A DNA stretch of 63,917 bases. Source: an uncultured Bdellovibrionales bacterium. Its GTDB lineage: Bacteria; Patescibacteriota; Minisyncoccia; Moranbacterales; GWC2-37-73. This document shows, in pieces, positions 23,921 through 34,567 of the stretch (position 1 is the first letter of the stretch; each line of letters starts with the position of its first letter). The position numbers were made by a program, and so were the translations under genes. Location of the stretch: positions 1-63,917 of the forward strand of contig CAYVME010000001.1 of the NCBI GenBank assembly GCA_964452415.1. The letters run 5' to 3'. The notes beneath the pieces are model-generated. The model did not search any database. It was not told where the DNA came from and saw only the letters and a program-made list of their open reading frames with translations.

Positions 23921-24106
23921 TTATTTTTCACCACCATAACGCTTTTCAATTTCTCCATCTTTTAATTCTTTTCCTGACCATCTTCCAACTCTGAAGCCAC
24001 AGTCAAGGCAGACCCATTCACTAATTCCATCGTAGCGTTCTGGACTTGTATAATTATATTCTACTCCACCAATATTCTTGCTACCACATTTCGAACATTT
24101 TTCCAT
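23921..24106 (-). CDS. small zinc-ribbon protein
   Basis: 61 aa with CSKCGS...CLDCG (CxxC-x27-CxxC). Confidence 0.5.
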   Translation of the reverse strand: MEKCSKCGSKNIGGVEYNYTSPERYDGISEWVCLDCGFRVGRWSGKELKDGEIEKRYGGEK

Positions 24107-24128
24107 ATTATTAAACTTTAATAATTAA

Positions 24129-24683
24129 CTATAAACTATTAATTTCTTTAATAATTTCCCTGTATTGTGGTATTCCCCTTTCTACCAAGTTCCAGAATTT
24201 TCGAGAATGATTAAACTCTTTCAGGTGACACAGCTCATGCACAATAACATAATCAGCAATTTTTTTGGGCAACAAGATAATTTTATAATTGAAATTCAAA
24301 TTTCCTTTTCGAGAGCAACTTCCCCATCTGGTTTTTTGATTCTTGATTGAAATTTTATTTATCTCATATTTATAAACCTGGTTAAAATGTGCCACTCTTT
24401 TTTCGGCAAATTTCAGCGCGTCATCTTTATATTTTTTATAGTCAGATTCACTTCTTTTTAGAAATATTTTATTTTTGATACTTTTGAAATAGGCAACTTT
24501 GTCCAAAATCCAAACAGCTTTTTCCTTGATTAATTTTTGAGCGAAACTTTCATTCATTTGATGTGGCAATGTAACCACAAAAGTTCCTTCACAATAAACA
24601 GCCAAGCGCATCCTTTTTGCACGCTTGCTTTTTTTGATTTCGTATTCAACCACCTTATTTTGTAGGGTTATTTTCTTTTTCAT
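24129..24683 (-). CDS. DUF45 / YgjP-like (M48-type) zinc metallopeptidase, R-M associated
   Basis: YVIVHELCHLKEFNHSRKFW (HExxH...H). Starts 2 nt after the hsdR stop. Confidence 0.75.
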   Translation of the reverse strand: MKKKITLQNKVVEYEIKKSKRAKRMRLAVYCEGTFVVTLPHQMNESFAQKLIKEKAVWILDKVAYFKSIKNKIFLKRSESDYKKYKDDALKFAEKRVAHFNQVYKYEINKISIKNQKTRWGSCSRKGNLNFNYKIILLPKKIADYVIVHELCHLKEFNHSRKFWNLVERGIPQYREIIKEINSL

Positions 24684-24685
24684 TG

Positions 24686-27619
24686 TTAGAATTTTTTAAT
24701 CACAATATCCACAATGCGATTAAGATATTTTGAAAAATCAGACACTGAAATTTTTTCCCTGTATTCACTCAAAACAATTTTTTGAACTTCCTTTTTAACT
24801 TCCTTGAGAATTTCTTCCCTGCGAGTGGTGCTCTGCCAATTAAAACCATAAAGAGAGGTTACTGCTTCAATTTTTGATGTCAGATCAATAACGAACTCTT
24901 TCAAATTTTCATCGTTGCCGGTAACAAATTCCTGAGAAATAACAAACACGCCATATTCTCTTAAATTATATCCCAACTCGCCAGCCTCTGAGTTTTTTGC
25001 TTTTATCTCTTTGAGAAGTTCATAATATTTCTTGATTCTTTCTGCAAGTTCAATTTGGCTTTTTTCAAATTCACTCCTGATGGCTGCCAGTCTTTCGCTG
25101 AATTTTTGAAAAATTGGATTAAGATCCAGATTTATTGAAATTTCTCTTTTTAATAATTTTTCCAAAGCGCGCGCTTTTTCTTCATCACTGGAAAAATATT
25201 GATTATCCAAAGTCGCCAAATCATGAATGGTCAACTCTCGGAAATTTTTCGTGATTCCTTCGTAGTCAATTTTTTCCTGGATAAGTTTTTTTACCTTTTC
25301 TCCATATTCAGCCAGCACACTCATGTCATCATCTTGGGATTTGAACTCCTTGGAAAATGCCAAATAGAAACTCGTGATCCATTCAAATTTTCTCAAATAT
25401 TGTTTCAAAAAAGGATCCGGAGAAAGAATTTCAAACAACAATTTCAAGCGTCCATATTTTTCTGAAAATTTCTGTTGCAATTCCTCCTTGCCAGCAAAAA
25501 TTCCAAGACACTTTCTCAAATTGATTATTGTCGGATCCTCAATATTCACGCCATTAAAAATTTGCATGATATCATTTAGCAAGGATGTGAATTCTTTTTT
25601 CACTTTTTCAATATCAATCATGGCGCTCTCCACCACGCTCTCATCGAAATTCAAGGCTTCATAAAGATTTCTGGTAACTCCATAATAATCAATAATTTTT
25701 CCACAACCTTTGTTTTGATAAACCCTGTTTGTTCTGGCAATTGCCTGCAAAAGATTGTGATCACGAAGTGGCTTGTCCAGGTACATCACCTGTTCCAATG
25801 GAGCGTCAAAGCCAGTTAGGAGCATGTCACACACAATCAAAAATTTTAATGGATCATTTGGATCCTTGAAACGAGCAATAATATTTTCGCGCTCTGCTTT
25901 GTTGGTGTTGTATTTTTTCAAATCATCCGCGTCGCTGTTTGGATCACCGGGAGAAAAAACAACTTCAGACCATTCGGATGGCACAAGTTTGTCAAAAAAT
26001 TCTTTATACTTTGCAGCTGCCATGCGATCATAGCAAACAACTTGTGCCTTGAATCCATTTGGCTCAACATACAACCTGTAATGTTCAATAATGTCTTGAG
26101 CCACTGCTTCCATGCGACTATCAAGCTTAATTAAAGCTTCTTTTTTACCATATTTTTTGATCAATTTATTTTTTTCTTCTTCTGTCAGCCCAACCGTTAA
26201 AGCGTCGAATTGAGCCTCAATTGCGGTCTCATCAATGAAAAACTTAGACAAACGAGCTTCATAGGTTACTGGCAGTGTCGCACCGTCATCGATTGCTTGC
26301 TTGATGGAATAGTAATCAAGATATCGTTCGCCGTCTTGTCCGAAATTTCTGTGAGTGTTGGTAGGATTTTTATCAATCGGTGTTCCCGTGAAGCCAAAGA
26401 AGAAGGCGTTTTTCATGGCACTTCTCAAATTTATTGCGGAAACACCTTCATTATCGCGGTGAGCTTCATCAGAAAGCACGATCACATTTTCATCCAGGTT
26501 TTCGATTGCACTGCCCAATTCGGAAAACTTTTGGATTGTAGAAATGTAAATTCCACGCTCGGATGATTTTATTTTCTTTTCAAGCTCTCTTCGCGATGTG
26601 ATTCGCTCAACATTTTTTCCTCCGCAATTTATGAAAGTGTTATAAATCTGATCATCCAAATCAATGCGATCAACCAAGATGAAGATTTTTGGATTGTTCA
26701 ATGTTTTTTCAAAGCGCAATTTCCAAGCAGTGAAAAACATTGTCAAACTTTTGCCGCTTCCTTGTGTGTGCCAGATCAACCCCCTTTTTTCTTCTCCTTT
26801 TTTCACACGCTCAAGAATTTTGTTGGTCGCGCGCATTTGCTGATAGCGACAAATTTTCTTTATTGTTCTCACGATGCCATCAGAATCTTTTTCATTTTCA
26901 AACAAGATGAAATTCTCAATCACATCTAGAATATTCTTCTTGCTCAGAAGTGCGGTCAATGTCATTTCCAACTCTCCGCCAAGTTCTTTTTCCAATTCCT
27001 CATCTCGCCATTGCAAGAAATATTGCTTCGATGCATAAGTTGCACCATACATGGTCTTGAGTCCATCAGTCACGATATTGAAACAGTTTGGCAAAAACAG
27101 TCGCTGAGCATTTTTTTCATATCGCTTGATCTGGCCGATCGCATTTTCATAGCTCACACTGCTTGAAGCTGTTGGGCTTTTGGCCTCAATGTCCACCACA
27201 GGAACTCCATTGAGAAAAATCAGCACATCAGGACGAATGTTTTCGGAGCTGCCTTCAAAATAGAATTGGTTCGTGACGACAAATTGATTGTTTTCAAAGT
27301 TATCAAAATCAACAATCAAATAGTCTTGCATTTTTCCTGTTTCAGGATCTTTCAGATTCACACCATCGCGAAGAACATTCAAAAATCCCTCATTGGTATC
27401 AACCTTTTTAATTTCACGAATGATATTTTGAACTTGCATGTCATCATCAAACTTGTTGATTTTTTTGATCGCCTCAGCCAAAAGTGGCACAATCAAAAAT
27501 TCACTCTCAAATTCCCGCAGCTTTGAAAATTCTTCTGGCTTAATATATTTATATCCAAGTTTTTCTTGGATGAATTTAATGATGTGATTTTCAACCGTGT
27601 ACTGTTCGTTAAATTTCAT
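24686..27619 (-). CDS. hsdR: type I restriction enzyme, R (endonuclease/helicase) subunit
   Basis: 977 aa. N-terminal nuclease region (PDVLIFLNGVPVVDIEAK), helicase motif I HTQGSGKSLTM, motif II VLSDEAHRD, motif VI QAIARTNR. Confidence 0.92.
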   Translation of the reverse strand: MKFNEQYTVENHIIKFIQEKLGYKYIKPEEFSKLREFESEFLIVPLLAEAIKKINKFDDDMQVQNIIREIKKVDTNEGFLNVLRDGVNLKDPETGKMQDYLIVDFDNFENNQFVVTNQFYFEGSSENIRPDVLIFLNGVPVVDIEAKSPTASSSVSYENAIGQIKRYEKNAQRLFLPNCFNIVTDGLKTMYGATYASKQYFLQWRDEELEKELGGELEMTLTALLSKKNILDVIENFILFENEKDSDGIVRTIKKICRYQQMRATNKILERVKKGEEKRGLIWHTQGSGKSLTMFFTAWKLRFEKTLNNPKIFILVDRIDLDDQIYNTFINCGGKNVERITSRRELEKKIKSSERGIYISTIQKFSELGSAIENLDENVIVLSDEAHRDNEGVSAINLRSAMKNAFFFGFTGTPIDKNPTNTHRNFGQDGERYLDYYSIKQAIDDGATLPVTYEARLSKFFIDETAIEAQFDALTVGLTEEEKNKLIKKYGKKEALIKLDSRMEAVAQDIIEHYRLYVEPNGFKAQVVCYDRMAAAKYKEFFDKLVPSEWSEVVFSPGDPNSDADDLKKYNTNKAERENIIARFKDPNDPLKFLIVCDMLLTGFDAPLEQVMYLDKPLRDHNLLQAIARTNRVYQNKGCGKIIDYYGVTRNLYEALNFDESVVESAMIDIEKVKKEFTSLLNDIMQIFNGVNIEDPTIINLRKCLGIFAGKEELQQKFSEKYGRLKLLFEILSPDPFLKQYLRKFEWITSFYLAFSKEFKSQDDDMSVLAEYGEKVKKLIQEKIDYEGITKNFRELTIHDLATLDNQYFSSDEEKARALEKLLKREISINLDLNPIFQKFSERLAAIRSEFEKSQIELAERIKKYYELLKEIKAKNSEAGELGYNLREYGVFVISQEFVTGNDENLKEFVIDLTSKIEAVTSLYGFNWQSTTRREEILKEVKKEVQKIVLSEYREKISVSDFSKYLNRIVDIVIKKF

Positions 27620-27634
27620 AATGATTTCTTTAAT

Positions 27635-28228
27635 TTAATTTTGTTCCAAATCTTCACCCACTGTTTTAAGAATATCAGATACCTTCCTTGCGAAAATATC
27701 TATTTTTTTACTAAATTCTGTGATACTCGCTGCTATTTCACCTTTATCATGATCACTTATTGTTATTGGAAAACATCTCATTCCCTCAAATTCAAGTGGT
27801 TGCGTATATTGTCCCTTAGTTAAGGGGAAAAACTTATTACTTATATTAATAAAACTTTTTGCTATATCGTTATAATCCCCCTCTAAGCTAGGAAACCACA
27901 CAATGGTTTCGTTAAATAAGTTTTGTTGATGACTCCCATATTTTTCTTTATTAGTTTTAGGATCAAATTCTGTTAAATCATACAAACCATTATTTAAAGA
28001 TATTTGTATATTCCCAACAATCATTTTATACGATTCGAGAGAATTAAAAATTAATCTTGTTGATTTCTGCAACTCTAAATATTTCTCTTTCTTATATAAA
28101 AATTTGCGCTCCTTATCAAACCTCCTTGAGGTAAATACTTCACTGACGACCAAGGTTGCAATACTAGACACTAATGATAGCAATACTCCTAAAATTATTT
28201 GGGCATTCTGTATAAAAAATCCTTCCAT
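27635..28228 (-). CDS. hypothetical N-terminally membrane-anchored protein inserted between hsdS and hsdR
   Basis: 197 aa. One TM helix (IILGVLLSLVSSIATLVVSEVF) followed by a soluble domain with no recognised motif. Gaps of 4 nt and 15 nt to its neighbours. Confidence 0.55.
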   Translation of the reverse strand: MEGFFIQNAQIILGVLLSLVSSIATLVVSEVFTSRRFDKERKFLYKKEKYLELQKSTRLIFNSLESYKMIVGNIQISLNNGLYDLTEFDPKTNKEKYGSHQQNLFNETIVWFPSLEGDYNDIAKSFINISNKFFPLTKGQYTQPLEFEGMRCFPITISDHDKGEIAASITEFSKKIDIFARKVSDILKTVGEDLEQN

Positions 28229-28232
28229 AAGT

Positions 28233-29492
28233 TTAGCTACTTACTCTCACTTTCCCACTCAAGAGATCTCGCATAAGACCTTTTTTGAGTTCAGTGAGTT
28301 TTTCTTTTATTTGCTTATTTATTGAAATTTTTTCATCAATATTCGAAAGAATTTCTGCAATCTTGATTTGTTCTGCGACAGAAGGCATAGCAAAAATAAA
28401 TCTTCCAATTTTTTGAGGAGATGTATGCCTAACTGTAGTGCCTGCTGCAGTAGAAAGAATCATGTCCCTATAATCGCTAGCTCTTAACCTCCAATATAAA
28501 AACTCCTTATAAATTTGCTCATTCAAAAAAGACACTTTCCCCAATCGTTGATTATGCAAGAAAGTATTTTCTGGACTGTTTGGCGCCAAGGCAGGATATC
28601 CAAGAGTATCTCCAGCTTTACTTAAATCAGTCATCGTTAATAACATTTGTCCAGCATCCAGAATGTATTCTCGTGGCAATTCACCTTTGCCTCCTAAATA
28701 ATATTTGAATTTACTGTCATTGAAACCGCCACCAATTTTGAAATTTCCAGGTGTTAATAATATGTATGATGTTTTTACATCAGTAAAATAAACTCCCTTA
28801 AATGCATAACCGTGTTTTATTTGGATAATATTAGACAACCCTACAATATCCCACTCATACGGAATCATCCCTAGTTTAGTTTTTTTGAATTTCGTGTGTC
28901 CAATGCCTTTTGTGAAAAGTTCTTGCATTAATCCTTTTTTCAATTCTTCTGTCTTTTTGATCACCTCATCAACTCTTTCAATTTCAGCATCTGCACCACC
29001 CAAAATCCCAGCAATTTTATTTTGTTCTTCAAGTGATTTTGGTTTTACTGTTTTTATTTTTCTTAGACTATCGGAATTAATAGCTGTAAATGTCGATCCT
29101 TGAGATAATTTATTAAATTCATCTTTTAGATTTTGCAAACAATAATATAAGAACTCTTGCGAATTTCCCTTTTTAATATTAAAACTTGCCAATCCTCTCC
29201 CAATACATGCCTTAGTATTATTCAAAAATACATCCCCAACTGGCGCTCGCACTGAAAACAAAATGCTACCATTTTCTGAAATTTTTGTTGGCGCAGTAGT
29301 CCATTGTCTAACTCTCGGATATTTATTTCCTTTTATAAAGTCTGCATTTCCTTGAAGAAATGGCAGACCTTCGCCATTCTGATTATAACTCGCTGAAGAA
29401 GGAGACTGACCCATAATCAAATCAGCGAAATCTTGCAATTCCACTTCCTCCCATCCCTCTGGAATATTTTTTTGTAATTTATTATTTTTCAT
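28233..29492 (-). CDS. hsdS: type I R-M specificity subunit
   Basis: 419 aa. Two target-recognition halves, each followed by the conserved coiled-coil repeat (KKTEELKKGLMQELFTKG / KEKLTELKKGLMRDLLSGKVRV). N-terminal LPEGWEE-type start. Confidence 0.88.
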   Translation of the reverse strand: MKNNKLQKNIPEGWEEVELQDFADLIMGQSPSSASYNQNGEGLPFLQGNADFIKGNKYPRVRQWTTAPTKISENGSILFSVRAPVGDVFLNNTKACIGRGLASFNIKKGNSQEFLYYCLQNLKDEFNKLSQGSTFTAINSDSLRKIKTVKPKSLEEQNKIAGILGGADAEIERVDEVIKKTEELKKGLMQELFTKGIGHTKFKKTKLGMIPYEWDIVGLSNIIQIKHGYAFKGVYFTDVKTSYILLTPGNFKIGGGFNDSKFKYYLGGKGELPREYILDAGQMLLTMTDLSKAGDTLGYPALAPNSPENTFLHNQRLGKVSFLNEQIYKEFLYWRLRASDYRDMILSTAAGTTVRHTSPQKIGRFIFAMPSVAEQIKIAEILSNIDEKISINKQIKEKLTELKKGLMRDLLSGKVRVSS

Positions 29493-29503
29493 TATTAAAA
29501 ATT

Positions 29504-29875
29504 CTAATTTAGTAAGGGGTTTAATTCAAAAAATTTATTTTTTATTTTCGATAAGTCATTAATCTTCATTTCAAAATATTTCTTAATATATGCATCGTAT
29601 TTATGATTTTTAATAGTAGAAATATTTTCCAAACTTTCAATGCTAAACTTTTGATCAATATTTCGTTGATTTGAAATGATGTGAAAATGTGGTGGATTAT
29701 GATCTCCGGAGCGAACAAAGACCATTAAATTTTTGCTAATACCAGTTTTTACAAATCCCTTAGTTATCATCTCACCCATTTCTATCTGAAAGCATCTGTC
29801 CATTCCCAAGGATATGTCCTCGAATTCAAAAATTTCTTCTTCTGAATTATTTTTTTGTAATTTATTGATTTCCAT
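29504..29875 (-). CDS. DUF4160-domain protein carrying a duplicated hsdS 5' end
   Basis: VFVRSGDHNPPHFHII matches the DUF4160 HxPPHFH motif. The first ~12 codons (MEINKLQKNNSEE) repeat the hsdS start (MKNNKLQKNIPEG). Confidence 0.6.
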   Translation of the reverse strand: MEINKLQKNNSEEEIFEFEDISLGMDRCFQIEMGEMITKGFVKTGISKNLMVFVRSGDHNPPHFHIISNQRNIDQKFSIESLENISTIKNHKYDAYIKKYFEMKINDLSKIKNKFFELNPLLN

Positions 29876-29880
29876 AAAAT

Positions 29881-30567
29881 TTAATTGTGGACTCTTGTAA
29901 TTTCAAATTCTTCCAAATTTTCTCTGAGAGACAATGCATGATTTATATAAAAGTCATGATTGCCAATGAAGTCTGCCCACTTAACAGGATGCACATACGA
30001 ATGATCTTCTCCATAATGATGATGTCCACCACATGAATCACATTTTTTCTGATTTTTATTTTTTCTATTAAACATATTTTTATTCAAAATCGAAAAATAT
30101 GTATGTGTTTGCCAATTTGTTACGCAATTTTTATGCGCAACAGCATATTCATAGCTGCCACTCATATCCGGCAAAACAACAGCAAGCATCGCGTTTGTCC
30201 TACTAATCCTGTCACCCCTCGTTTTATTGCGCAAAGAATATACGACCTCCCTAGGAATCCATTGTTCTTTCTCTAATTTTAATCTATCCCGCATATTTGG
30301 AGAAATTAAAACTATTGTGACAGAGCTATCAAAAATTTTCTGTTTCAACTTTGAGTCTATTGTATCATCTGACAAATCATCCATAGCCTCATCGCCCAGC
30401 TCTCCCTTGTATATATGATTGCTGCCAACAACATCAATTATTTTGTCCACATAATGCCTGGGCGTATGAAGATATCCAGTATCTGCTGACGGAGTGTATT
30501 CACTCAAAGGAAAAACATTTGAATCTTTATACTTATAACTTACAAAAATTTTTCTTGAAGTATCCAT
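29881..30567 (-). CDS. TIR-like domain protein (DUF1863 / ThsB-type) with Cys/His-rich C-terminal region
   Basis: N-terminal RKIFVSYKYKD strand motif; VTIVLISPN; QWIPREVVYSL, a W-x3-E motif where TIR enzymes carry the catalytic Glu; C-terminal CDSCGGHHHYGEDH. Confidence 0.55.
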   Translation of the reverse strand: MDTSRKIFVSYKYKDSNVFPLSEYTPSADTGYLHTPRHYVDKIIDVVGSNHIYKGELGDEAMDDLSDDTIDSKLKQKIFDSSVTIVLISPNMRDRLKLEKEQWIPREVVYSLRNKTRGDRISRTNAMLAVVLPDMSGSYEYAVAHKNCVTNWQTHTYFSILNKNMFNRKNKNQKKCDSCGGHHHYGEDHSYVHPVKWADFIGNHDFYINHALSLRENLEEFEITRVHN

Positions 30568-30569
30568 GA

Positions 30570-30974
30570 TTAAAATATGCTAATTAGAAATATTATTATC
30601 AATGTCGGGATATAAAAATATGCCAATGTATTAGAAAACATACAATAGCAAATCGATGTTTTTCGTAGACTATTAAACTCGTCCGTATTCATTGAAAAAT
30701 CAATATCATCTTCTTTTAACTTTCTAACTTTATCATATAAGCATCTGTAACTGCGCTCCAAAGACAAAAAGTAAGCGTCATGAATCCAAAATATCAAAAC
30801 AACGAGCACCAATATTACCTGCAACTCATTGCGGCCAACTTCCAAGAATGCAACCGAGAGACCAACTACAAGTGTAATCATCCAGCCGCGCAATGTGAAT
30901 AAATTACCACTCATTCTGGTGATCACTCCCTGAATTAATTCAAGGTGCTTTAATCTTTTTTCATTTTCACTCAT
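30570..30974 (-). CDS. small 3-TM membrane protein (SLATT/DUF4231-like effector candidate)
   Basis: 134 aa. Amphipathic N-terminal helix LELIQGVITRMSGNLFTLRGW, a TM hairpin (MITLVVGLSVAFLEV / LQVILVLVVLIFWIHDAYFL), a charged helix and a C-terminal TM. Stops 2 nt before the TIR-like ATG. Confidence 0.5.
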   Translation of the reverse strand: MSENEKRLKHLELIQGVITRMSGNLFTLRGWMITLVVGLSVAFLEVGRNELQVILVLVVLIFWIHDAYFLSLERSYRCLYDKVRKLKEDDIDFSMNTDEFNSLRKTSICYCMFSNTLAYFYIPTLIIIFLISIF

Positions 30975-31072
30975 AAATTTTTAGTTATTACTTGCTATTT
31001 TTTAGCCTTAATCTTTTTCACGCTTTTCTTTCTTAATTTAAACTTGTGCATTTTTTGCACTAGTTGATTTTT

Positions 31073-31972
31073 TTATGATAATAATTTTTGAATATCTTCC
31101 TGACTAAATTCCTTTCTATAATCAATCAACTTTGGATGTTTGATTTTTCTGAGCTCTTCATCATATGTTGCCATGATATTTCTTGCTCTTTTTTGATAGA
31201 CCAACCAATTTCTTTGAGATGAAAATTCTTCAAATATTTTTTCAAACTCCCTCTGTGTCAACATTCTGCCCAATTTTTTGAATTCTTTTTCAACTTCCCC
31301 TGCCAAGCCAGTTTCAAATGCTCCAATAATCAAAACGATCTCCTCATACATTGAATTTCTGGTCAAATCTTTTTTGACAAGATTCAAAAGCTTTCGATAT
31401 TCTTTGGCTCTTTCCAGGAACAAAAAATTATACAACATGTCGGTGTATGTTCCATAAATTTTTACGGCTACGAAATCTTTTATGCAATCAGTAAAATCTC
31501 TGCGGTATTCCTTTGTTTCTTCTCTGGTTTCAAAAAATTGACTAGCAAGTTGATTGATGAATTTCGGATCCATGGTTGCGATCTGCATGACCTTTTTGAA
31601 ATCACTTTCAACTCTGATGAAATATTTTCTGACTTTTTTACCTATCTCACTATTTTCAATCATCGCAAGCTCCTTGGCCATGTCCACGGAAATAATATAG
31701 TCTTTAGCAACAACTTTTCCGGTTTTTGGGTCTTTAGCTTTTGCTTTATTTGAGGCAATTTTTCCATCCCCCGATTTGGTGATGGATGCAGGAATGGATG
31801 TAAAATAATCCAAATTTTCCACAAAATCATACTTCTTAATTCTGTCTTTTATCCATGTAGAAAAGTCCCTACCAACATTCAACCATGAGTGCAACTCCCT
31901 GGCATTTACAAATCGCTTCTTATCCCCATTGAAATCTTTTTGGATTACTTTTATATTTATAAGTTCATTCAT
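31073..31972 (-). CDS. AntA/AntB-type phage antirepressor-domain protein
   Basis: FVNARELHSWLNVGRDFSTWIKDRIKKYDFVENLDYF...DYIISVDMAKELAMIENSEIGKKVRKYFI matches the AntA domain. C-terminal ~170 aa unassigned. Confidence 0.55.
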   Translation of the reverse strand: MNELINIKVIQKDFNGDKKRFVNARELHSWLNVGRDFSTWIKDRIKKYDFVENLDYFTSIPASITKSGDGKIASNKAKAKDPKTGKVVAKDYIISVDMAKELAMIENSEIGKKVRKYFIRVESDFKKVMQIATMDPKFINQLASQFFETREETKEYRRDFTDCIKDFVAVKIYGTYTDMLYNFLFLERAKEYRKLLNLVKKDLTRNSMYEEIVLIIGAFETGLAGEVEKEFKKLGRMLTQREFEKIFEEFSSQRNWLVYQKRARNIMATYDEELRKIKHPKLIDYRKEFSQEDIQKLLS

Positions 31973-31985
31973 ATTTTTATTTTAG

Positions 31986-33668
31986 TTAGTATTTCAACTC
32001 CTTCAAAAATCCCTCCACTTTTTTGTCAGCTTCCATTCGTTGTTTTTCCAATTCTTTCAGTTCAGTGTAAACTTTTTTCACATCGATTTGAATCTCTTCT
32101 TCACTTGAATCAATGTATCTGCGCACATTCAAGCTGTAGTCATTTTCTGCAATCTCAGTCTCATCAACCACGCGAGCATATTTTTCAACATCTTGATATG
32201 TGTCATATGAGCTGACAATTTTTTCAATGTCTTGGTTTCTGAGTGTGTTTTGATTTTTTCCTTCTTGAAATTCTTTTTCAGCATCAATAATGAGAATTTT
32301 GCCTTTCCTTTCTTTTGGCTTATTTTTGTTAAATATAATTACAGCCACTGGGATGCCAGTGCCATAAAAAAGTTTTGCTGGCATCGCAATCACTGCCTCA
32401 ATCAAATCATTTTTGATGATCTGCTCCCTGAGTCGTCCTTCTGCACCACCACGAAACAACACACCGTGCGGAAGCACAATGCCAGCCCTTCCATTTGGCG
32501 CAATTGATTTGAGCATGTGCAAGACAAATGCGAAATCAGCATTTTTTTCAGGTGGCATCTCATAACCTTCAATTCTGCCATATCTATCACCTCTAAAAGT
32601 TTCGTATTCGTAATCTTTAATCGAGTAGGGCGGATTCGAAACCGCGATTGAAAACTGTTGAAGCCCGCCAAGCTCATTCAAAAATTGCGGATTGGCAATT
32701 GTGTCGCCTCTTCTGATGTCAGCACTGTCAAGCCCATGAAGGAACATATTGATTTTGCAAATCGCATAGGTTCCAATGTTTAATTCTTGTCCATATAAAT
32801 AGAGCGACTGCGCAATTTTTTCTCCAGCTTTTTCTTTGAGATAATGATACGCCTCCAAAAGAAAACCTCCTGAGCCCACGCACATGTCATATATGTGGTC
32901 TTTTTGGTGAGGTTTCAATATTTGAATGATGACACGCTCGACCTCGCGAGGACTGTAGAACTCGCCACCCTTTTTACCTGCATCAGCAGCAAACATTTTT
33001 ATAATATATTCATAAGCATCACCCAGAAGATCAGAACTGATGTATGAGTTGTTGAAATTGTATTGTGAAAAGTGATTAATTAGTCGCTGCAATGTTTCAT
33101 TTGAAAATTTGTCCTTGTTTGCAAAATCAAGGTCATCAAAAATTTTGTCCAGTTTTGGACTGTTTGCATTGCTAAGTTTGTCAAAAATTCCATTGAGACT
33201 TTGGCCAATGTTTTCAGCTTGCTCTTCAATGATTTTCCAGCGACAATCTTTTGGAACCTGAAATTTGTGATTATAGTCAGCCCGAGCAATTGCATCATCG
33301 CCAAACTCTTTCAAAAGTTTTTCATATTCTTCATCCCAAACATCACTGATGCGCTTGAAGAACAAAAGTCCAAATATGTATTTTTTGTAATCACCACTGT
33401 CGATTTTTCCGCGCAGAATGTCCGCACTTTTCCAAAGAAATTTTTCCAACTGCGAGAGTGTCAATTTGTTTCCCAATTGAGCTTTTATGATTTCAACATG
33501 CTTTTCAGTGTATCTCCTGTCTTTTCTGTCACCAACCCGAAGAGGAACGATGATTCCATTTTTTTCCCAATTGCGCAAAGTGTCCTGATGGATATTGAAT
33601 TCCTCGGAAATTTCTTTTATTGTATAATTCTTTTTTTCCTTTTTTGAGGCTGTTGACAAGTTTTTCAT
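31986..33668 (-). CDS. hsdM: type I R-M N6-adenine DNA methyltransferase subunit with N-terminal MerR-like HTH
   Basis: HsdM_N-like FLWKSADILRG, AdoMet motif DMCVGSGGFLLEA, catalytic SNPPYS. The N-terminus YTIKEISEEFNIHQDTLRNWEKNGIIVPLRVGDRKDRRYTEKHV is MerR/excisionase HTH-like. Confidence 0.9.
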   Translation of the reverse strand: MKNLSTASKKEKKNYTIKEISEEFNIHQDTLRNWEKNGIIVPLRVGDRKDRRYTEKHVEIIKAQLGNKLTLSQLEKFLWKSADILRGKIDSGDYKKYIFGLLFFKRISDVWDEEYEKLLKEFGDDAIARADYNHKFQVPKDCRWKIIEEQAENIGQSLNGIFDKLSNANSPKLDKIFDDLDFANKDKFSNETLQRLINHFSQYNFNNSYISSDLLGDAYEYIIKMFAADAGKKGGEFYSPREVERVIIQILKPHQKDHIYDMCVGSGGFLLEAYHYLKEKAGEKIAQSLYLYGQELNIGTYAICKINMFLHGLDSADIRRGDTIANPQFLNELGGLQQFSIAVSNPPYSIKDYEYETFRGDRYGRIEGYEMPPEKNADFAFVLHMLKSIAPNGRAGIVLPHGVLFRGGAEGRLREQIIKNDLIEAVIAMPAKLFYGTGIPVAVIIFNKNKPKERKGKILIIDAEKEFQEGKNQNTLRNQDIEKIVSSYDTYQDVEKYARVVDETEIAENDYSLNVRRYIDSSEEEIQIDVKKVYTELKELEKQRMEADKKVEGFLKELKY

Positions 33669-33702: not shown

Positions 33703-33731
33703 AGTATATATCAAGCTTTTAAAATTGTCAA
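33703..33731 (-). promoter_or_regulatory. sigma70-like promoter of hsdM (TTGACA-17-TATACT)
   Basis: The minus strand reads TTGACA attttaaaagcttgata TATACT, about 35 nt upstream of the hsdM ATG. Confidence 0.6.
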
Positions 33732-33907: not shown

Positions 33908-34567
33908 TCAAAAAATACGGTTTTTAATGCTACTGTAATCATTTTTCGTGACAATAACATGATCAATCACCTCAATCCCCAGGATCTTCCCTGCTTCCAC
34001 GAGGCGCTTGGTGATGGCCAGGTCATCATCTGAAGGTTCTGGATTACCCGAAGGGTGGTTGTGAGCCACGATGATCTGAGCAGCGGTGTGTTTGATGGCT
34101 GGCTCGAAAACTTCCCGCGGATGCACCAAATTAGCATTGAGCGTGCCGACAGAGATTATTTCTCGTTGGATTTCTTGATTGCGAGTGTCCAAAAAGAAAA
34201 CCACGAAATGTTCTTTCTTGTGGTCGCGGATGTCTTTGCAATTTTCCCAAACATCTTTCGGTGACAAAATAAGTGCTGACTTTTTGTCTTTCAAAATTCT
34301 TTTTCCAAATTCAAGACATGCCAGAATTTCAGAGGCTTTTGCTTTTCCCAACCCATGAATTTCACTCAATTCTTTTATGGTTGCGCTGAGCAATTTTTCG
34401 TTGGGAAATTTTTTCAGAATTTTTTTGGAAAGTTCAATCACATTGCAGTCTTTCGTGCCAGTGCGAAGCAGGATTGCCAACAACTGAGCATCCGTCAATT
34501 TTTCTGGTCCGTATTTTTCCAAAATTTCTCTTGGTCTATCAACTTTTGCAATGTCTTTTATTTTCAT
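33908..34567 (-). CDS. radC: RadC-like JAB-domain protein (UPF0758)
   Basis: N-terminal HhH region plus the JAMM motif IIVAHNHPSGNPEPSDDDLAITKRL. Confidence 0.85.
   Translation of the reverse strand: MKIKDIAKVDRPREILEKYGPEKLTDAQLLAILLRTGTKDCNVIELSKKILKKFPNEKLLSATIKELSEIHGLGKAKASEILACLEFGKRILKDKKSALILSPKDVWENCKDIRDHKKEHFVVFFLDTRNQEIQREIISVGTLNANLVHPREVFEPAIKHTAAQIIVAHNHPSGNPEPSDDDLAITKRLVEAGKILGIEVIDHVIVTKNDYSSIKNRIF

Follow-up and report, generated by a model that had tools for sequence, protein, structure and literature searches.

The window analyzed in this work is a stretch of 63,917 nucleotides from a CPR (Moranbacteria-like) genome, and its minus strand carries a type I restriction-modification (R-M) operon in which a cassette of two genes lies as cargo between hsdM and hsdS. 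The first gene of the operon is hsdM (31986-33668; PADLOC MTase_I match), followed by a gene encoding a 299-aa AntA-like protein (31073-31972; Pfam AntA, 1.1e-23), the C-terminal half of which matches PADLOC PDC-M59A at 2.6e-23. After a gap of 98 nt the cassette begins; it includes an ORF for a protein of 134 aa (30570-30974) and an ORF for a protein of 228 aa (29881-30567), referred to here as thsF and thsB for the reasons given below. The coordinates of these two ORFs and their spacing of 2 nt were exact in the original prediction. The cassette is followed by a gene for a 123-aa DUF4160 protein (29504-29875; Pfam DUF4160, 5e-05, 23.8 bits with the cut-off at 23), hsdS (28233-29492; PADLOC Specificity_I match, with tblastn matches in related loci), an ORF of 197 aa with an N-terminal TM segment (27635-28228) and hsdR (24686-27619; PADLOC REase_I match); a gene encoding a YgjP-like metallopeptidase (24129-24683; Pfam YgjP-like, 1.9e-43), located 2 nt after hsdR, forms the tail of the operon. 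It had been proposed that the pair continues into hsdS and hsdR with gaps of 5-15 nt; the connection is not direct given that the DUF4160 gene and the 197-aa ORF intervene, and the spacing is about right once both are counted, with gaps of 5, 11, 4 and 15 nt from thsB through to hsdR.

The backbone of this operon is shared with related loci: hsdM homologues (38-73% identity) are present upstream of thsF in about 20 of them, hsdR is 67-71% identical to that of the window, and the YgjP-like gene is kept after hsdR with 54-63% identity. The AntA-like gene is absent from all 80 related loci and the DUF4160 gene from those compared; both are variable cargo, and the AntA-like gene does not belong to the pair. 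The 197-aa ORF, for which Pfam, NCBIfam and PADLOC gave no meaningful family E-value and the search for plasmid homologues no match, is a further piece of cargo. The best sigma-70-like promoter match on this strand (33703-33731; TTGACA-17-TATACT, 11/12 positions) is located upstream of hsdM and could be the operon promoter, a lead to be read knowing that the total of promoter-like sites in the region does not exceed that of shuffled sequences. The 98 nt preceding thsF hold no convincing promoter of their own by the same scan, which also gave no internal terminator. The thsF and thsB genes are probably co-transcribed with the R-M operon, and would thus add a further layer of defence after restriction.

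Judged by its sequence, the 228-aa product belongs to the ThsB-type TIR proteins, in the clade that includes BdThsB1/TIR1, and is putatively a signal synthase. The motifs RKIFVSYKYKD, VTIVLISPN, QWIPREVVYSL and CDSCGGHHHYGEDH, from which a TIR-like protein with a catalytic Glu had been proposed, are all present, and this proposal is borne out by a full-length match to PADLOC ThsB1 (PDLC00428, E 2.3e-69), by a profile match to the PDB entry 9vyl, "BdThsB1 with NAD" (E 2.6e-79), and by residue E107, which is invariant in the family and aligns with the catalytic E85 of Bacillus cereus ThsB. When compared with 9vyl using Foldseek, the protein behaves as a full-length homologue (TM 0.88/0.90, 42% identity). 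The Pfam ThsB_TIR score, 20.5 bits, is slightly below the cut-off of 21.2, and many ThsB homologues carry PF08937. A Cys/His-rich stretch had been placed at the end of the protein; it exists, at residues 176-189 and not at the C-terminus, and the conserved cluster comprises C148, C176, C179, H184 and H189, a part of which, as the 9vyl alignment suggests, is not conserved in BdThsB1. The names '9VYL' and 'BdThsB1' were not found in the literature searched. It has been shown that TIR1 of Bacillus dafuensis makes a ThsA-activating cADPR isomer upon infection (10.1101/2021.01.06.425286). The link of the window ThsB to 3'cADPR is drawn through this type I protein, which is 42% identical.

The partner of the TIR protein is a small protein with three TM segments, as anticipated: hydropathy places the hydrophobic segments at about residues 25-46, 51-72 and 113-134, and the AlphaFold2 model (pLDDT 89) shows helices at 5-46, 50-85 and 115-133. 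[quoted passage not shown] It matches all four PADLOC PDC-M50A models, the best being PDLC04686 (E 1.7e-40), and it is homologous to the 141-aa product of the gene located downstream of the experimentally validated thsB of Bacillus thuringiensis DAR 81934; BLASTP aligns the two proteins over 129 aa with 43% identity (E 2e-34), and hhalign gives a probability of 99.9 (E 7e-38). The 141-aa gene lies 13 nt downstream of P0391, whose product is 100% identical to the validated ThsB (Tables S1 and S2 of 10.64898/2025.12.03.692087), and the protein it encodes also matches PDC-M50A (1.8e-48), sharing PDLC04686 with the window ThsF. The polar residues Q15, R20, N24, G30, W31, D66, E73, R77, Y80 and D92 are invariant across the family and in the validated ThsF, and the basic or polar cytoplasmic residues R20, R77, R84, N24, E73 and Y80 are conserved. 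In addition, SLOG-ThsF fusion proteins exist, which fits ThsF acting as an effector module that responds to a nucleotide-derived ligand.

Other family assignments were considered for the 134-aa protein. The SLATT/DUF4231-type architecture suggested by the original prediction had to be abandoned, since no SLATT Pfam family matched the window protein at E <= 1 or any of 25 relatives at E <= 10, and the protein is instead a direct homologue of ThsF. The type V effector has been labelled Pfam DUF2270 (10.64898/2025.12.03.692087); using hmmscan, PF10028 (DUF2270) did not match the window protein, and it was matched weakly by 2 of the 25 relatives (E 0.025). Because the validated ThsF of DAR 81934 likewise has no DUF2270 match, this label does not discriminate type V members under hmmscan, and it was dropped as a basis for identity in favour of the direct homology to the validated protein. 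Foldseek searches of the PDB with the ThsF model gave no match at E <= 0.001, returning generic helical hairpins, and NCBIfam has no family for either the 134-aa or the 228-aa protein. These comparisons bring together by sequence three names of one effector family: PDC-M50A, the "DUF2270" effector, and ThsF.

From these analyses we conclude that the pair, in the order thsF-thsB, is very probably a type V Thoeris anti-phage system. This type was described and tested by Yirmiya et al. in a bioRxiv preprint of December 2025 that is not peer reviewed (10.64898/2025.12.03.692087), and it was validated in B. thuringiensis DAR 81934 and in Bacillus sp. 1NLA3E. In the B. thuringiensis system ThsB makes 3'cADPR on infection, the addition of 3'cADPR is toxic to cells carrying the system, and the Tad1 sponge lowers type V defence; the effector, with its three TM helices, has been modelled as a heptameric channel. 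The validated system of Bacillus sp. 1NLA3E is not triggered by added 3'cADPR, and a type V operon of Vibrio cholerae gave no defence in Escherichia coli (10.64898/2025.12.03.692087). The pair had been put forward as a candidate new one; given that the system has been published and that PADLOC-DB 2.0.0 (2023) already held its effector as PDC-M50A, the locus is a new example of type V Thoeris and not a new system. The model put forward with it, in which the TIR protein responds to infection with an NAD-derived signal and the membrane protein acts as the membrane-disrupting executor, agrees with what was demonstrated experimentally for the homologous system, so that the correct mechanism was reached from the sequence alone for a type of system validated only in late 2025.

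The window system differs from the B. thuringiensis one in several respects: the gene order is thsF-thsB instead of thsB-thsF, the cassette lies inside the type I R-M operon of a CPR host, and the window ThsB, which is similar to BdTIR1 and carries the Cys/His module, does not share the TIR clade of either validated type V ThsB. Nevertheless, both consist of a TIR gene and a small three-TM effector homologous over its full length, and in Table S1 of 10.64898/2025.12.03.692087 TIR proteins with the architecture of the window ThsB, Cys/His region included, are labelled "DUF2270 - Type V".

As had been stated, the pair does not correspond to type I or type II Thoeris. No ThsA with SIR2 and SLOG domains was found beside ThsB by the scans of the operon genes and by tblastn, and the effector has no Macro domain; none was detected in the 134-aa protein, which is too short to hold one, or in its neighbours. 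The broader claim that no SIR2, SLOG or Macro gene exists anywhere in the window stands for the operon genes other than hsdM, hsdS and hsdR, in which Pfam and PADLOC scans found none of these domains; the rest of the window was covered by a PADLOC scan considered for its best 25 families only, and by a tblastn search with SIR2 and SLOG examples that gave nothing at E < 0.3 and is a weak negative test. The window ThsB is a full-length homologue of the type I protein of B. dafuensis (TIR1/9vyl), a phage-triggered producer of a ThsA-activating cADPR isomer; in contrast to that system, the window lacks a SIR2-SLOG ThsA, and its effector is a membrane protein and not an NADase. In type VII (TIR and the SLATT effector ThsH) and type II (TIR and a Macro-TM effector) a TIR signal also triggers a membrane-disrupting effector; however, SLATT and Macro models give no match to the window effector, and the signals of these two types are canonical cADPR and His-ADPR, unlike that of type V.

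The association of the two genes is conserved beyond this operon. A TIR gene was found beside thsF in 80 of the 80 related loci fetched, downstream in 75 and upstream in 5 (in one of these at about 0.9 kb), so that both orders, thsF-thsB and thsB-thsF, occur in the family; the pairing is also found on Priestia and Terribacillus plasmids. Only 20 of the 80 loci have the cassette in a type I R-M operon, between hsdM and hsdS, and these represent two hsd families, with hsdM about 70% or about 40% identical to that of the window. The other loci, about 60, showed no hsd gene in the flanking sequence fetched, which reached at most about 6 kb per side and was shorter on short contigs. The Bacillus and plasmid cassettes lie outside hsd operons. 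The pair is thus co-conserved regardless of R-M context. Close homologues (80-93% identity) occur in many samples and in other phyla. A nearly identical thsF (93% at the amino acid level) is accompanied by a TIR gene of an unrelated class. This swapping of thsB beside a nearly unchanged thsF lends support to the view that a single signal and a single effector serve different TIR sensors.

By analogy with the validated systems, ThsB would remain inactive until a phage cue is detected; once activated, it would use the catalytic residue E107 to turn NAD+ into an isomer of cyclic ADP-ribose, most probably 3'cADPR. ThsF is predicted to be an inner-membrane protein with three TM helices; the AlphaFold3 models published for validated homologues show homo-oligomeric rings in which neighbouring protomers enclose basic pockets, and ThsF may assemble in the same way. 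The signal would bind in these pockets, for which R20, N24, E73, R77, Y80, R84 and the IDFSM loop are candidate residues, and so open or disrupt the membrane and stop the infected cell, i.e. abortive infection.

The position of the cassette raises the question of whether it is functionally tied to the type I R-M system instead of being independent cargo; for instance, ThsB could respond when restriction fails or is inhibited (anti-restriction proteins, unmethylated DNA, stalled HsdR) and then activate ThsF as a reserve defence. The single co-directional operon with its tight packing (gaps of 2-15 nt), the repeated hsdM-hsdS position in 20 of the 80 loci and in two hsd families, and the fact that the PADLOC PDC candidates, PDC-M50A included, go back to genes found inside BREX, DISARM or type I R-M systems speak for such integration. 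We nonetheless consider it quite unlikely, since about 60 of the 80 loci have no hsd gene detected in the fetched flanks, the Bacillus and plasmid examples lie outside hsd operons, the validated type V systems defend without an R-M partner (10.64898/2025.12.03.692087), and the AntA-like, DUF4160 and 197-aa genes, which differ between loci, give the region the look of a cargo hotspot and not of a co-adapted unit. A related idea, which we regard as unlikely, is that thsF-thsB is mobile and has inserted time and again between hsdM and hsdS of unrelated type I R-M operons, into which it may have become wired; it would then be co-transcribed with them, and ThsB variants would be exchanged precisely at the gene border so as to adjust phage sensing, perhaps to phages that escape or inhibit restriction. 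If this were true, CPR R-M operons would be layered 'restriction plus abortive infection' units and not mere neighbours.

A different division of labour would make the TIR protein itself the NAD+-depleting effector, with the TM protein as sensor, anchor or regulator and no diffusible signal. Many bacterial TIR domains are indeed NADase effectors (CBASS, Pycsar, TIR-pAgo), and the 228-aa protein has an additional C-terminal module rich in Cys and His; however, added 3'cADPR by itself makes the homologous ThsF system toxic, B. dafuensis TIR1, the nearest TIR protein that has been characterised, produces a signal for a separate ThsA, the 93%-identical thsF beside an unrelated TIR class favours a shared small molecule over a specific protein-protein interface, and SLOG-ThsF fusions point in the same direction, all of which makes this arrangement very unlikely. 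The Pfam ThsB_TIR score below the gathering threshold could also be taken as a sign of an inactive remnant, or of a pair with a non-defence membrane function in a reduced CPR genome. This is extremely improbable, given that both ORFs are intact and full length, that every family-invariant residue is retained, including E107, and that homologues of 80-93% identity occur in many samples and also in other phyla.

The locus leaves the current understanding of Thoeris unchanged, and its remaining interest is modest: the CPR host, the class swap of thsB, and the recurrence of the cassette between hsdM and hsdS in two hsd families. With it, type V Thoeris extends to the ultra-small genomes of CPR bacteria, in which abortive infection would be consequential for an episymbiont lifestyle. 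The PADLOC PDC candidates, which are genes lying within R-M and other defence systems, were obtained by "guilt-by-embedding" (Payne et al., bioRxiv 10.1101/2024.01.29.577857), and the window ThsF lies in a context of this kind; in contrast to the window pair, PDC-M50, a name not found in the literature searched, is a candidate system without an assigned mechanism. Other defence genes embedded in R-M loci, such as PrrC and the TgvAB system of V. cholerae VPI-2 (PMC11411939), are also independent modules between hsd genes that are probably co-expressed with them, whereas the module described here would be a signalling abortive-infection system, and neither a nuclease nor a type IV restriction enzyme.

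The 134-aa and 228-aa genes, here named thsF (30570-30974) and thsB (29881-30567), lie on the minus strand 2 nt apart at the coordinates claimed in the original prediction, as the ORF listing confirmed. They belong to a close-packed co-directional row that runs from hsdM (31986-33668) through a 299-aa AntA-like gene (31073-31972, 13 nt after hsdM and 98 nt before thsF), thsF, thsB, a 123-aa DUF4160 gene (29504-29875, 5 nt after thsB), hsdS (28233-29492, 11 nt further), a 197-aa ORF with an N-terminal transmembrane (TM) segment (27635-28228, 4 nt further) and hsdR (24686-27619, after 15 nt) to a gene for a YgjP-like metallopeptidase (24129-24683, after 2 nt), which is followed by a 61-aa zinc-ribbon ORF (23921-24106), all on the minus strand. 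Apart from the 123-aa and 197-aa ORFs, which were overlooked, the operon had been described accurately, including every quoted motif. A RadC-like gene (33908-34567) is located directly upstream of hsdM. The G+C content between 24 and 32 kb (24000-32000) is 0.30-0.34 vs about 0.38 for the remainder, consistent with an R-M operon that arrived with its cargo as a horizontally acquired island. Proteins identical to those encoded by thsF and thsB are recorded from an uncultured bacterium (ACD_8C00124G0016 and G0015), and their nearest relatives belong to Candidatus Moranbacteria; therefore, the host is a CPR (Patescibacteria) bacterium.

The TIR-like reading of the 228-aa protein was borne out. The PADLOC ThsB1 model PDLC00428 covers it end to end (2.3e-69), its score against Pfam ThsB_TIR (20.5 bits) is slightly below the 21.2 cut-off, and PF08937 is present in many close homologues among the matches listed (1,602 homologues in total). 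A profile of 30 homologues matched a single solved structure, 9vyl (E 2.6e-79), with the molecule name "Putative cyclic ADP-D-ribose synthase TIR1" and the title "Crystal structure of BdThsB1 with NAD"; the AlphaFold2 model of ThsB (pLDDT 86) superposes on it with TM-scores of 0.88/0.90 and 42% identity. From these names we infer that the crystallized protein is TIR1 of Bacillus dafuensis. This TIR sets phage specificity and, on infection, makes a cADPR isomer that activates ThsA, the SIR2-SLOG effector of type I Thoeris (10.1101/2021.01.06.425286). E107 of ThsB, in the motif WIPRE, is invariant across the family and aligns to "WVRYE" of B. cereus ThsB, a protein whose E85Q mutant has been used as the inactive control (10.1101/2021.01.06.425286). 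Since C148, C176 and H189 are also invariant, and C179 and H184 almost so, a zinc site is suggested in the C-terminal module.

The 134-aa protein is without a family in Pfam or NCBIfam and matches PADLOC PDC-M50A (1.7e-40) and phrog_19896. It has three hydrophobic segments, and its helical model, of good confidence, has no fold match in the PDB. Its family comprises 5,057 representative clusters (E <= 1e-3), in which polar residues are strikingly conserved in the non-membrane portions of the helices. The proposal of a SLATT-type effector found no support in family searches.

A TIR protein together with a three-TM effector named ThsF, labelled "DUF2270", has been described as type V Thoeris and validated in two Bacillus strains (Yirmiya et al., preprint, bioRxiv 10.64898/2025.12.03.692087). 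In one of them, B. thuringiensis DAR 81934, phage triggers the synthesis of 3'cADPR, added 3'cADPR is toxic and the Tad1 sponge is inhibitory; in an AlphaFold3 model, this effector forms a channel of seven protomers with basic pockets in between (10.64898/2025.12.03.692087). The B. thuringiensis ThsB sequence, as given in Table S1 of the preprint, led to a 100%-identical protein (P0391), and its contig was read. A 141-aa gene begins 13 nt downstream, a position that agrees with the IMG identifier of the effector (ThsB identifier + 1). Its product shares 43% identity over 129 residues with the 134-aa protein (E 2e-34), is found by the family profile of the latter with a probability of 99.9, and matches the same PADLOC model (1.8e-48). 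Common to both proteins are Q15, R20, N24, G30, W31, F62, W63, D66, E73, R77, Y80, D92 and M95; as independent examples, plasmids of Priestia megaterium and Terribacillus carry homologues of thsF and thsB side by side. Judged by sequence, the 134-aa protein is ThsF, and the pair is a further example of type V Thoeris, or PADLOC PDC-M50, not a separate system. By hmmscan against current Pfam-A, neither the 134-aa protein nor the validated ThsF (L084:4773-5198) reached DUF2270 (PF10028); the label used in the preprint must stem from a different annotation route, and the discrepancy deserves the attention of database curators.

The pair had been proposed as a new signalling pair. PADLOC arrived at its PDC candidates, PDC-M50A being one of them, by "guilt-by-embedding", starting from genes that sit inside BREX, DISARM and type I R-M systems (Payne et al., 10.1101/2024.01.29.577857), and TgvAB are experimentally documented defence genes embedded in a type I R-M operon (PMC11411939). 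Given these studies and the type V preprint, both the pair and its R-M context are already described.

With each species represented by one genome, a scan for the 134-aa protein yielded 190 relatives; 80 loci were retained, a sample biased towards relatives of the query. Every one has a TIR gene beside thsF, downstream in 75 (mostly with a gap of 0-13 nt, in a few up to 98 nt) and upstream in five, four directly adjacent and one (L041) about 0.9 kb off. In 20 loci, the cassette lies between hsdM and hsdS/hsdR; the hsd genes there belong to two families, with hsdM about 70% vs about 40% and hsdR about 68% vs about 28% identical to those of the window. In the flanks fetched for the other 60, no hsd gene was seen. 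The pair is thus co-conserved irrespective of R-M context and appears autonomous, the R-M operon being one frequent landing site. About 49 of the 80 loci bear Patescibacteria-type names. The partner TIRs fall into a 228-aa BdTIR1-like class (25 loci), short DUF1863-type proteins of 116-193 aa (about 43), a 123-aa class (five) and a few others; these classes resemble clusters labelled "DUF2270 - Type V" in Table S1 of the preprint (10.64898/2025.12.03.692087). In one related locus, L002, identity to the thsF of the window is 93% at the protein and 85% at the DNA level, and the DNA similarity (L002:5972-6410 vs window 31004-30565) is confined to this stretch and breaks off right at the stop codon of thsF. 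At L002, thsB encodes a 159-aa DUF1863-type TIR of an unrelated class, and the hsd genes of this locus are of the other family (hsdM 40%, hsdR 28% identity); by sequence comparison this is a clean modular exchange at a gene boundary. What remains of interest is the CPR host, the swapping of thsB and the recurrent hsdM-hsdS insertion site.

We consider it very likely that the pair works as type V Thoeris. ThsB would sense infection and make a cADPR isomer, probably 3'cADPR, and ThsF oligomers would bind this signal and then breach the membrane; the predicted scheme of a TIR signal acting on a membrane effector would thus be essentially correct by homology. The identity of the signal as 3'cADPR is favoured with modest confidence, as it rests on the homology to BdTIR1 and, of the two validated systems, on a single one. 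Of three other readings, a functional coupling of the cassette to R-M seems improbable, an arrangement in which the TIR is the effector, by NADase activity, and the TM protein the sensor is quite improbable, and an inactive remnant is hardly credible. Most loci are free of R-M, a small molecule is toxic in the published system, TIR classes are swapped and the conserved residues are intact; together, these points speak against the three readings.

ThsF domains also occur at the C-terminus of fusion proteins. The N-terminus is a SLOG domain in P0323 (LD_cluster2, 1.7e-15), looks similar in P0283, without a significant Pfam match, and is an 8xMP octameric membrane protein domain in P0320 (1.6e-27); the validated ThsF is weakly like 8xMP along its full length (E 0.012). 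The SLOG-ThsF fusions identify ThsF, by an independent line, as an effector module under ligand control.

Regarding the other embedded genes, the 299-aa product has an N-terminal AntA/AntB antirepressor domain (Pfam 1.1e-23) and a C-terminal half that matches PADLOC candidate PDC-M59A (2.6e-23); its gene is missing from all 80 related loci and is therefore variable cargo. The 123-aa protein matches DUF4160 with 23.8 bits (cut-off 23), and no counterpart was found in related loci. For the 197-aa ORF, searches of Pfam, NCBIfam, PADLOC and PHROGs gave nothing above noise and no plasmid homologue was found; it may be a further embedded defence candidate between hsdS and hsdR. The YgjP-like metallopeptidase keeps its position after hsdR in related R-M operons (54-63% identity). 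The validated B. thuringiensis locus adjoins a gene pair, Gabija-like in its domains, that comprises a UvrD-like helicase and an OLD-family ATPase/TOPRIM (L084:5454-8759), and the Priestia plasmid copy adjoins a dcm methyltransferase and an SNF2 protein (L081:1-3572); both are typical defence-island neighbourhoods. Finally, ThsF homologues (40% identity, E 2e-8) are encoded at about 2201-2491 in PQ189363.1, PQ189372.1 and PQ189378.1, 14-kb elements submitted as phages of Vibrio cyclitrophicus; these could be satellites, or small mobile elements, that bear the system.
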